This document shows, piece after piece, positions 14,719 to 20,696 of a DNA stretch of 24,000 nt. The stretch is from Desulfurococcales archaeon (GTDB lineage: Archaea; Thermoproteota; Thermoprotei_A; Sulfolobales; AG1): contig JAVVGE010000012.1 of the NCBI GenBank assembly GCA_032249255.1, forward strand, positions 7,321 through 31,320, written 5' to 3'. Position numbers and translations under genes: made by a program. Position 1 is the first letter of the stretch. Each line of letters opens with the position of its first letter. The notes beneath the pieces were generated by a model that had not been told where the DNA came from, ran no database searches, and was given only the letters and a program-made list of their open reading frames with translations.

Positions 14719-14878
14719 TTATAACTTAGAGGCTCAGAGGCTAATATTATTTCCAGCTAGATTTCCTCAGAAGAAACCTCAATATTAAAGAGAGCAAATG
14801 ACCCCCCGCTCTTAAGGGCTGTATTCTTTTTCATGATAGTAGAAATCTTTTTATATTTTTTCATTATTAATTAAATGG

Positions 14879-16475
14879 TTGGGGTGGAGGTTTAGAACAA
14901 AGAGATGTCTAGGGATAATGGCTAAGAGGATGGAAAAGAGGGATAAGAAGTGGATTTGGGTTGCAAAGCCAGGAGATAAGATAGTTGTTAGTAGAACCGC
15001 TGTTCTGCCCTCAAAGAAGTTATCTAGGAGAGAATTCAGGGCATTGGAAGAGATCGTGAATATATATAGCAAGATGCTTGGAGATGTGCTTCCCCACGCA
15101 TCTAGGAATATAATTGGGAATTACTATAGGCTTGAGAATGGGGAGTATCGAGAGCTAAGGAGTATCTATCTAGATATCCCATCCCACTATGTTCACAGAG
15201 TATGCCAGGATGCTGTTGAAAGGGTTTCCTCTCTTAGGAGGAACAGGGCTAGGCAATACTCTTGGAAGATCTTCGATGAGCTTATTAAGCATCTAGGTCT
15301 AGGGAAAAGGGATCTTAGGGACAGGAGGATCAGGAGACATCTCTGGAGGAGATCTTAGGAGATCGCTCAGTATCAGGTAGAATGAGATGAGTAATGGAAT
15401 ACTAGTGCCTGGGATCAATAGTGTTAGTCTATGGCTAGTTGATGACCATGCTTGGAAACCAGTAAACCCTACGAAGATCAATATAAATGGCGTTGAGAAC
15501 ACTTTCTTCACAAGTGTTGCTATCAATACCAATAGGGGCTGGGTGCACCTCGATCTAGAGCCTTCTAAGGAGTTCTACAAGCTTTTGGCCAAGGGTTTTA
15601 AGCCGACATCCTAAGCTAAGATTAAGCTTGATAGGAGGAGTAGGAGGGTAGCTTTCCACCTATCCCTCGAGAAGGAGGTCGAGATCTACAGCCCAGAGAA
15701 TATGAAGTTTGTTAATGTTAATGAGAACTCTGTAGCAACTCTCTACGAGGCATTCGCAGTAATCCTAGAAACAGATCTTGCCAGGACAACACTGGGCTAT
15801 AGCTATAGGAGAGAGAGTATTCAGAGGAGATATGGATCCGATAGTAGAGAGACTAGGAAGGCTATGAAAAAGCTTAGAGAGAGAAAGAAGAAGAGGGACT
15901 ATAGGTGGAAGACAGCAAACCTAATAGTAAGGGACGCTCTGAGGACTAGGGGTGTTATAGTTATTGAGAGGATCTCAGGGGATGATATAAGGGTTATGAT
16001 CGCTAGGTATAGGAATAAGCAGCTGAGGCACAGGATATATCAGAGTGCATTGAAGGGTGAGCTGAACGCGATAATAGATAAGGCTAGAGAGTACGGTGTG
16101 CCGGTATTGATGGTAGATCCTAGGAACACTTCGAAGATCTGCCCTATACACAATGCCTTGATAGAGTATGGGGAAGATAGGATAGGTGTCTGTAGCAAAG
16201 GTGGTGAGAGATGGCATAGAGAGGTAGTTGCCTTGATTAATATTTATCTTAAGGCCCTCGAAGCCCTTTATGAGGGCAATGTCCAGAAGGGCTTCGGGGT
16301 TCCAAGTATAGATGGAAGCCCCTTTCCGCTGTGCTCCACAGCCACCGGTGAGCCCATAGAGATCCATAGATCTCTGTGGGGGAGGTGGAAGTCCCCCGAT
16401 GCCACAGGGCTAGAAACCCTGTGGATCAAGAGGCAAAGCAATCCAAAACAAATGAATATCAGTGATAATCAATGA
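14879..16475 (+). pseudogene. tnpB: tnpB (OrfB) disrupted by a frame change near 15356-15386 and an in-frame TAA at 15612-15614
   Basis: Three collinear ORFs (14879..15358, 15387..15614, 15702..16475) together give a TnpB layout. The N-terminal helical part is RTAVLPSKKLSRREFRALEE...LDIPSHYVHRVCQDAVE. It is followed by a RuvC-I-like VNVNENS, RuvC-II VIVIE, VDPRNTSKICP, a degenerate zinc-finger region, and HREVVALINI. Confidence 0.8.
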
Positions 16476-16493
16476 TCATCGGGGGACAAGCGG
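16253..16493 (+). ncRNA. Candidate TnpB guide-RNA (omega/reRNA-type) scaffold overlapping the tnpB 3' end
   Basis: The position (last ~220 nt of tnpB plus the right end) is where omega-RNAs are encoded in characterised TnpB elements. There is a nested hairpin at 16259-16296 with covariation versus the copy at 17563-17603, and a further stem CCACAGGG-N7-CCCTGTGG at 16402-16424. The whole module is kept in the miniature derivative E3. The RNA ends and its expression are unknown. Confidence 0.4.
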
Positions 16494-16744
16494 CAAGGCC
16501 TATCCTCTATTTAAGGTCATAAAGATCATAATGAAGACTTTAACCCCTTCACGCTATGTGAGAGATACTCTCGCTCTCAAGCTTGGGTTCTATGCTGGGA
16601 TTTAAAATGTTATTAAGTCGGGCACACATGGTATCCAGGGATCTTTTCCGGCCATCAATTAAGAGGCAAGAATCCCAAGATATTTAGCTGATATTTAGCT
16701 AGGAGCATAGCCTCGGCACTTATTTTGCTCCTAAACTGGTATTC

Positions 16745-17320
16745 ATGGGAAGCGCTTTGGGATTCAGGCTCGAGGATCTGGTTCCCATTTTTAAGTGGCT
16801 CTCTAGTCTAGGCCTAGGCTTCGTCATTATTGGAGATACATGTATCTACTACACTATCGGTAGGAGGGTTTTTGAAGGAGACGTTGATCTCTATATCTAT
16901 GAAGGCTCGCTCATCTCAGTCGAGGGAGATATAATTTCTCATGCTGATGAGGTCGGCTGGGATCTAGGTTCCACATGGCTCGGCACCCCATCTCTAGTCG
17001 TGAGAGTTGGTTCTGAAGAGGTCTCCCTCGATCTATATGAGGCTGTCCATGATTTCTACGTTCCGTGGGAGTTTCTGGAGAGCCCCAGGGTTGTGGATAT
17101 CTCCGGATACCCTCTCAGAATGCTTTCTCCTGAGCAGCATATAGTGCTTAAGGCTAGATCTGGTTCTGAGGGTATCGATGAAGAGCTCCACGAGTATGTG
17201 GATCTATATGAATCCGGGGATCTCAAGATCTCCATCCATGAACTTAAGAAGCTCGCATCATTCTTCGAGGACCAGAGAATAATATTGTCTAGACTCAGAA
17301 ATGCTGGTTTCCCTCTTTGA
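16745..17320 (+). CDS. Putative nucleotidyltransferase-fold protein (Pol-beta superfamily, MNT/AbiEii-like)
   Basis: 191 aa. VIIGDTCIYYTIGRRVFEGDVDLYIY fits the hG[GS]-x(9-14)-DhDh minimal NTase pattern. The C-terminal half is helical (LSPEQHIVLKARSGSEG...). No HEPN-like or other partner ORF is adjacent. Confidence 0.5.
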   Translation: MGSALGFRLEDLVPIFKWLSSLGLGFVIIGDTCIYYTIGRRVFEGDVDLYIYEGSLISVEGDIISHADEVGWDLGSTWLGTPSLVVRVGSEEVSLDLYEAVHDFYVPWEFLESPRVVDISGYPLRMLSPEQHIVLKARSGSEGIDEELHEYVDLYESGDLKISIHELKKLASFFEDQRIILSRLRNAGFPL

Positions 17321-17368: not shown

Positions 17369-17800
17369 CCGCTTGTCCCTCGATGGTTATTGATTATCGC
17401 TGATATTCATTTGTTTTGGATTGCTTTGCCTCTTGATCCACAGGGTTTCTAGCCCTGTGGCATCGGGGGACTTCCACCTCCCCCACAGAGATCTTGGGAT
17501 CTCTATGGGCTCACCGGTGGCTGTGGAGCACAGCGGAAAGAGGCTCCCATCTATCCTAGATCCCGAGGCTCTATTGGGGCAGAGCCCCCATCTAGAGCCT
17601 CGGTCTCGGGAGCTCAAGCATCATAGCATCCCGAGGTCTCTCCATGCCCAGGTCTAGCAGAGATTATCGCCTCATCATCAATACAATTATGGATCGGATA
17701 CTTATAAGCTTAACCCAGACAGCAAACAAATATAAAAGCATCCCCACTATCATGAAAAAAAGATACAGCCCGTCCTTCAAAGCGGGGAGAAGGTTATTTA
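17369..17800 (-). mobile_element. Miniature derivative (E3) of the family-A tnpB element: left end + AT box + ATGATGAGG + complete 3' (guide-RNA-type) module
   Basis: 17369-17554 is an inverted copy of 16308-16493, with about 8 mismatches in 186 bp by eye. Weaker similarity extends to ~17606/~16253. The reverse complement of 17728-17787 matches 14804-14861. ORF 17387..17617(-) is simply the copied tnpB C-terminus (PLCSTATGEPIEI.RSLWGRWKSPDATGLETLWIKRQSNPKQMNISDNQ). Confidence 0.7.
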
Positions 17801-20357: not shown

Positions 20358-20459
<102 letters not shown>

Positions 20460-20617: not shown

Positions 20618-20696
20618 GCGGCGGTCGTCTAGCCTGGTCTAGGACGCCGGCCTCCCGAGCCGGCGATCCCGGGTTCAAATCCCGGCCGCCGCACCA
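20618..20696 (+). tRNA. tRNA-Gly (anticodon CCC); CCA encoded
   Basis: It folds as GCGGCGG-UC-GUCU-AGCCUGGUCUA-GGAC-G-CCGGC-CUCCCGA-GCCGG-CGAUC-CCGGG-UUCAAAU-CCCGG-CCGCCGC-A-CCA, a clean cloverleaf. Confidence 0.9.

Follow-up and report, generated by a model that had tools for sequence, protein, structure and literature searches.

Two copies of a nested hairpin are found in a stretch of 24,000 nucleotides (hereafter the window) of a Desulfurococcales archaeon, one inside the 3' coding region of a tnpB gene and the other in a miniature, gene-less copy of the same transposon. From stem positions at which both partners had changed, the first-pass annotation of this DNA proposed that selection acts here on a nucleic-acid structure rather than on the peptide, with the scaffold of a guide RNA and an end structure of single-stranded DNA as the two candidates. 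The locus raises the question of which strand folds, in which molecule, and as part of what. In this work we analyzed the two copies, their relatives in the same genome and their homologues in other genera, and we conclude that the nested hairpin is very probably the first stem-loop, counted from the 5' end, of the omega-RNA (reRNA) that serves as guide-RNA scaffold for the TnpB encoded by this element.

The full-length element and its miniature neighbour

The full-length copy is a tnpB-only IS200/IS605-type element (IS1341-like) that occupies positions 14816-16493 of the plus strand. These limits were set by homology among the genomic copies; with a query taken from 14700, homology begins at query base 116-117, i.e. 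at around 14815-14816, and stops at 16493. The left end begins GGGCTGTATTC and the right end closes with ...GGGACAAGCGG (16493). The tnpB gene (14879-16475, plus strand) is a pseudogene that appears in the list of open reading frames as three pieces, 14879-15358, 15387-15614 and 15702-16475. A profile search identified the Cas12f1-like TNB domain (PF07282) in the tnpB of the window; the TnpB of the family reaches 42 bits with this profile (cut-off 26.3), and the best genomic copy reaches 61.6 bits with TIGR01766 (cut-off 32). By these two matches the protein of the element is a TnpB, a type of protein defined by a RuvC fold plus a zinc-ribbon/TNB domain. With NF040570 the best copy scores 57 bits, below the cut-off of 100 bits, and a PDB sequence search with this copy found no relative. 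The longest open reading frame of the family tnpB in the genome has 479 aa, and nearly all the copies are broken.

In essentially all the family copies of the genome the sequence of the third RuvC motif is WHREVVALINI, in which Glu replaces Asp (16221-16223 in the window), and the homologues of other genera have R-D-V at this site; since the family has Glu where the Asp of this motif is expected, an active partner nuclease is not assured. The first RuvC motif is VNVNENS, with Asn (15714-15716 in the window), in two of the 31 tabulated copies, the window copy among them, and VDVNENS or a close variant in the remaining ones. The same genome carries a paralogous TnpB, 50% identical and with an open frame of 466 aa (G000:C49, minus strand), and several more distant TnpB families (around 27% identity, 385-412 aa). 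In the assembly no intact TnpA was found, and the only trace of a Y1 transposase is a 30-residue match with a TAG stop (G000:C3:7981-8070).

The second copy is a gene-less miniature element (MITE/PATE-like) of 403 bp, located at 17369-17771 on the minus strand, inverted with respect to the full element, and recognized by its left-end and right-end homology. Both transposon ends are present, and no TnpB-like coding sequence is found upstream of the module; the miniature consists of a left end (17771-17724), in which a TATA-like box is found, a leader of 115 nt, and the ~235 nt that close the element, with the omega-RNA module (17604-17369). Given the archaeal TATA-like box in its left end, identified by eye, the miniature has the look of an RNA gene that drives its own transcription. 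Its right-end part (17369-17554) shares 95.7% identity with positions 16308-16493 of the neighbouring full copy; with every other copy the identity is 92% or less. Between the two inverted neighbours identity falls sharply just downstream of the hairpin, a pattern that suggests local gene conversion between them. The sole gene between the two facing element ends encodes a DUF2204 nucleotidyltransferase (16745-17320; E = 4e-44). Two tRNA genes are also present in the window, at 20361-20459 (minus strand) and at 20618-20693 (plus strand); the former, with a span of 99 nt, probably contains an intron. CysRS shares 74-75% identity with that of MAGs labelled Sulfolobales or Desulfurococcaceae, which identifies the host as an uncultured thermophilic crenarchaeon.

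Regarding the insertion sites, the flanks of about 70 of the 116 extracted left ends were read, and no conserved motif was found 5' of GGGCTG; the TAM may sit within the GGGCTG bases of the left end itself. Several copies are immediately preceded by a GC-rich palindrome, GCCCTT(A/C)AGGGC in type (e.g. C23:20728, C30:16737 and C14:1423; 14800-14815 in the window). A second family of elements may end in this palindrome, and its presence upstream of the insertions may hint at a target preference.

The hairpin of the full copy spans 16256-16299 on the plus strand. The arms that had been described, CGAAGCCCT (16259-16267) and AGGGCTTCG (16288-16296), and the inner hairpin GGGC-AAT-GTCC (16274-16284) are located where the first-pass annotation placed them, within the tnpB frame, which reads ALEALYEGNVQKGFG from 16254. 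The outer stem is longer than noted, with 14 pairs formed by 16256-16269 and 16286-16299, and the inner stem pairs 16274-16277 with 16281-16284 around the loop AAU. The hairpin of the miniature (17560-17606, minus strand) adopts the same nested fold; its arms correspond, as reverse complements, to 17593-17603 and 17563-17573, and its inner stem is GGGGC/GCCCC (minus strand, 17588-17584 and 17580-17576), also in agreement with the earlier description. The folding energy is -27.7 kcal/mol for the full copy (z = -4.45) and -32.6 kcal/mol for the miniature (z = -5.68), and in each case 0 of 200 shuffles folded as well.

Two stem pairs had been reported to differ on both sides between these copies. 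Both of these, A-U to G-C and C-G to U-A, are confirmed, but the count is three, the additional one being U16268-A16287 of the full copy, which is A-U in the miniature. The inner pair, G.U in the full copy and G-C in the miniature, does differ as reported, but this is due to a private C-to-T change of the decayed full copy, the pair being G-C in 163 of 181 genomic copies. As a rough chance estimate, the probability that six changes among 22 stem positions form three pairs is 165/74613 = 0.002, before complementarity is required.

Paired changes within the genome and across genera

In the assembly (2.68 Mb, 250 contigs) the module gives 269 matches; about 190 of them begin at the hairpin and about 225 extend to the right end. 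The hairpin is carried by about 183 copies, with about 107 gene-less and about 73 linked to tnpB. The A-type stem (CGAAGCCCU/AGGGCUUCG) is present in 129 copies, 60 located behind tnpB coding sequence and 66 gene-less. The B-type stem (CGAGGCUCU/AGAGCCUCG), which is the type of the miniature and has three pairs that differ on both sides, is present in 13 copies, all 13 of them gene-less. A G.U intermediate at the first changed pair was observed in 14 copies (13 gene-less), hybrid stems in which only one arm is changed are also present, and the single-sided changes within the genome yield G.U 68 times and A.C 36 times. When the coding frame is considered, the changes of the 5' arm are synonymous (GAA to GAG, GCC to GCU) and those of the 3' arm would replace Phe and Gly, which accounts for the finding of the paired state only in copies that have no open reading frame. 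Given that the genomic copies share ancestry, the three paired changes represent one to three events and not thirteen, and they trace to a single lineage split. RNAalifold on raw alignments of 135-176 genomic copies gave a sparse consensus only, because many of these copies have decayed; for this reason, homologues of other genera were used instead.

The central part of the module is present in other genera of the order, and in every homologue read the nested hairpin is found at the same place, with quite different sequences in the outer stem. In a plain MAFFT alignment of 20 of these homologues, which includes no member of the window's family and was not fitted to any structure, ten of the 12 outer-stem pairs change on both sides, 0 of 500 shuffles reach the observed scores, and sliding the partners drops pairing from 88% to 30-50%. 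As MAFFT set the family of the window and the sequences L006 and L029 one stem column out of register, a covariance model (R1) was built from the 20 other-genus homologues only, and the displaced sequences were then realigned with it. R1 finds both copies of the window, the miniature with 112 bits (17465-17617) and the full copy with 94.5 bits; among the outer-stem pairs, only the outermost is non-standard in the miniature, and none is in the full copy. It also matches 94 of the 151 genomes and 42 of the 59 genera of the order. The larger alignment that had been proposed as a check on the hairpin (A4, 56 sequences from ~30 genomes) reveals strong covariation: all 12 outer-stem pairs change on both sides, 93.6% of the cells are paired (33-47% in the slid-partner controls), and 0 of 500 shuffles do as well. 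For instance, one outer-stem pair is GC in 18 sequences, UA in 13, UG in nine, CG in six and AU in two, and over the whole module two-sided changes are seen at 28 of 41 pairs. Having been fitted to the structure of the model, A4 favours that structure, and its related copies are not independent; the result of the unfitted alignment is therefore the safer one. Together with the restriction of the B-type stem to gene-less copies, this covariation bears out the view that a nucleic-acid structure, rather than the peptide, is under selection.

The hairpin is also retained in gene-less derivatives that are differently built. In other genera each family of these derivatives has its own junctions and its own sequence ahead of the hairpin, and the hairpin is the first conserved element in every gene-less locus examined. 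A TATA-like box, identified by eye, lies ~30-55 nt upstream of the hairpin in these loci and ~115 nt upstream in the genome of the window, a spacing that would fit a transcript starting shortly before the hairpin. The order of parts in several of them (L010, L120, L129, L132, L135, L006/L029/L137/L138 and L014/L021/L023/L025) is a short left end starting GGGCTGTTTC..., a TATA-like box, and then the hairpin, followed by the remainder of the RNA module.

These observations bear on two other explanations of the hairpin. According to the first, the paired changes would be a mutational by-product, in which template switching in a quasi-palindrome during replication transfers a change between the arms and structure is not selected. 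A single event of this kind alters both arms at once, the B-type stem is a perfect 11-bp palindrome, and the changes within the genome come from one lineage. Template switching may be the origin of some of the paired changes. Nevertheless, it leaves unexplained the pairing of very different stem sequences across 30 genomes, the sense-strand G.U excess described below together with a conserved unpaired GAUG/AA loop, and the fact that gene-less families of different build have kept the hairpin; as a full account we consider it extremely unlikely. The second explanation is that the hairpin is a cis-acting element of the tnpB mRNA (a translational pause, a stabiliser of the mRNA or an attenuator) that lies outside the guide RNA. 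Its location inside the open reading frame, ~70 codons before the stop, would suit this idea, as would the fact that the equivalent 5' region of ISDra2 is dispensable for cleavage. However, more than 100 gene-less copies of the genome keep the hairpin under structural constraint, and so do gene-less families of other genera, where there is no open reading frame to regulate, which makes a role restricted to the mRNA very improbable.

The probable omega-RNA module and the molecule that folds

Hairpin 1, as the nested hairpin is called hereafter, opens a module of 200-250 nt that is closed by the right end of the transposon. In the full copy this module comprises 16256-16493, at the 3' end of tnpB and in the sense orientation, with the tnpB stop codon at 16473-16475; the whole module of 240 nt folds with -108.6 kcal/mol (z = -6.87). 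Hairpin 2 (16316-16336, plus strand; consensus GAGCCC/GGGCUC) changes on both sides at five of its six pairs across the homologues, and has two of the six mismatched in the decayed copy of the window; its loop (16322-16330) includes the predicted pseudoknot strand CCGCU (16326-16330). Alignment and folding also identified a long-range helix (16338-16392, plus strand) between ACAGCCACC (16338-16346) and GGUGGAAGU (16384-16392), inside which lies the hairpin CCCAUAGAGAUC-CAUA-GAUCUCUGUGGG (16353-16380, plus strand). A second long-range helix (16393-16485, plus strand), seen by covariation and in the MFE fold, pairs CCCCCGAUG (16393-16401) with CAUCGGGGG (16477-16485) and encloses a family-specific hairpin (16402-16424) and an A-rich stretch with the tnpB stop codon; its arms covary between families (CCCUAGAUG/CAUCUAGGG, CCCUACCGC/GCGGUAGGG and CCCUGGAU/AUCCAGGG).

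The right end is formed by the terminal motif ACAAGCGG (16486-16493, plus strand; consensus ACAA(A/G)CGG), and its last five bases, AGCGG (16489-16493), are complementary to part of the hairpin 2 loop. This loop-tail complementarity is CCGCU/AGCGG in the genus of the window, and CCGUU/AACGG, in full, in 26 of the 29 listed sequences of other genera; with one covarying position, the support for the putative pseudoknot is modest. The published omega-RNA layout has base pairing between the terminal motif and the loop of its second hairpin (PMC12558985), and since hairpin 2 and the terminal motif show the same arrangement here, the nested hairpin corresponds to hairpin 1 of that layout. Homology among the copies stops at 16493, and the flanks vary from copy to copy directly after ...CGG; the first flanking bases past the right end (16494-16513, plus strand) are the predicted guide segment.

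As regards the strand, G.U pairs exceed A.C mismatches by 80 to 17 in the outer stem and by 147 to 39 overall in the alignment of 56 sequences, from which it follows that the tnpB-sense strand is the one that folds. This is also the top strand of the transposon, so the strand test alone cannot separate RNA from single-stranded DNA. The elements of the IS200/IS605 group move as single strands, using top-strand hairpins, and hairpin 1 could form in the single-stranded top strand during transposition and be recognised by a Y1 transposase (TnpA) acting in trans. Such a role agrees with the strand test, and the ~180 copies of the element imply that something mobilises it. However, known TnpA hairpins are subterminal and are found at both ends, whereas hairpin 1 lies 195-240 nt from the right end, which is mid-element in the 403-bp miniature, and no matching GC-rich palindrome or hairpin counterpart was seen when the left end was read; the similar palindromes, tens of bases from each end, that mark TnpA-type hairpins are thus not what is observed. 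Moreover, the assembly has only the stop-containing Y1 fragment of 30 residues mentioned above, and frequent G.U pairs in a module with a pseudoknot suit RNA better. A hairpin for transposition is in our view very unlikely, and of the two structures put forward by the first-pass annotation this context disfavours the single-stranded DNA end and favours the guide-RNA scaffold, given the distance from the right end, the omega-RNA-like module and the sense-strand G.U pairs. That the molecule is RNA we infer from this distance, from the lack of a left-end counterpart and from the state of the Y1 fragment; it would be bound by TnpB.

As part of an omega-RNA, hairpin 1 would be near the start of an RNA that is transcribed in the tnpB sense from at or just before the hairpin, within the last ~70 tnpB codons, passes six more helices to the right end, and continues into the flanking DNA, which would be the guide. 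In the full copies the same sequence would serve both the protein and the RNA. In the gene-less copies the RNA constraint alone would remain, and the stem could in consequence drift via G.U intermediates and fix two-sided changes.

Within this RNA, we would guess, hairpin 1 may define the 5' end left by processing, or shield it. Through its conserved GAUG/AA internal loop and GGAGC inner stem it may instead give this TnpB clade an additional contact; folding at high temperature is another candidate role. Considering that the 5' part of the ISDra2 omega-RNA can be deleted, hairpin 1, at -240 to -195, may lie outside the nuclease core. A more far-reaching proposal is that in this archaeal clade hairpin 1 is an obligatory, sequence-specific module, and no dispensable addition, that sets the 5' end of the guide RNA or recruits protein, and that the ~100 gene-less copies equipped with a promoter are self-transcribed guide-RNA genes that parasitise one or few remaining Glu-type TnpB genes, either to be retained themselves or for a regulatory use that involves no cutting; we hold this to be rather unlikely. 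Regarding known motifs, inspection by eye indicated that the GAUG/AA internal loop is not a standard kink-turn, as its non-bulged strand has no GA, nor a bulge-helix-bulge/loop splicing motif, as unpaired bases are found on the opposite strand.

Comparison with known TnpB systems

The omega-RNA is a known kind of RNA, and these results leave the current understanding of TnpB systems unaltered. The family described here is absent from Rfam, where searches with gathering and permissive thresholds gave chance-level matches only, and it had not been previously catalogued. It defines a widespread omega-RNA family, and with R1 both the guide RNAs of TnpB and their solo copies can be annotated in thermophilic archaea. 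It also offers a case in which one stretch of DNA would be under two constraints, protein and RNA, in the full copies and under that of the RNA only in the gene-less ones.

The module resembles the omega-RNA/reRNA of known TnpB systems (ISDra2, the sotRNAs of Halobacterium, and SisTnpB1 of Sulfolobus islandicus) in that it overlaps the 3' end of tnpB, terminates at the right end of the transposon and is followed by a variable flank as the would-be guide; the multi-helix scaffold, here backed by covariation, and the pairing of the hairpin 2 loop with the terminal motif are also alike. Its length of 200-250 nt is similar to that of the ISDra2 omega-RNA, which has a scaffold of 231 nt; the 5' part of this scaffold (-231 to -117) is disordered, and editing is not lost upon its deletion (PMC13639567). 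In contrast with that disordered and dispensable region, the first hairpin is here the most strongly covarying helix, a difference that suggests a testable, clade-specific role. Unlike known TnpB omega-RNAs, the scaffold lies almost wholly within the open reading frame, with the stop codon 18 nt before the right end, and the TnpB itself differs from known ones in being long (~480-520 aa) and divergent (below the NF040570 cut-off), and in the Glu of its third RuvC motif.

PATE-like elements "often encode omega-RNAs" that are used in trans (10.1101/2023.03.14.532601). The 403-bp copy is comparable to the PATE-like/MITE derivatives of Geobacillus stearothermophilus (Meers et al. 2023) in that it keeps both ends and the whole RNA module and has no open reading frame, and like them it would need TnpB and a transposase in trans. 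In contrast with the Geobacillus stearothermophilus elements, the copy number is high, with ~107 gene-less and ~73 tnpB-linked copies in 2.7 Mb, the assembly has no intact TnpA, and the left end carries an archaeal TATA-like box.
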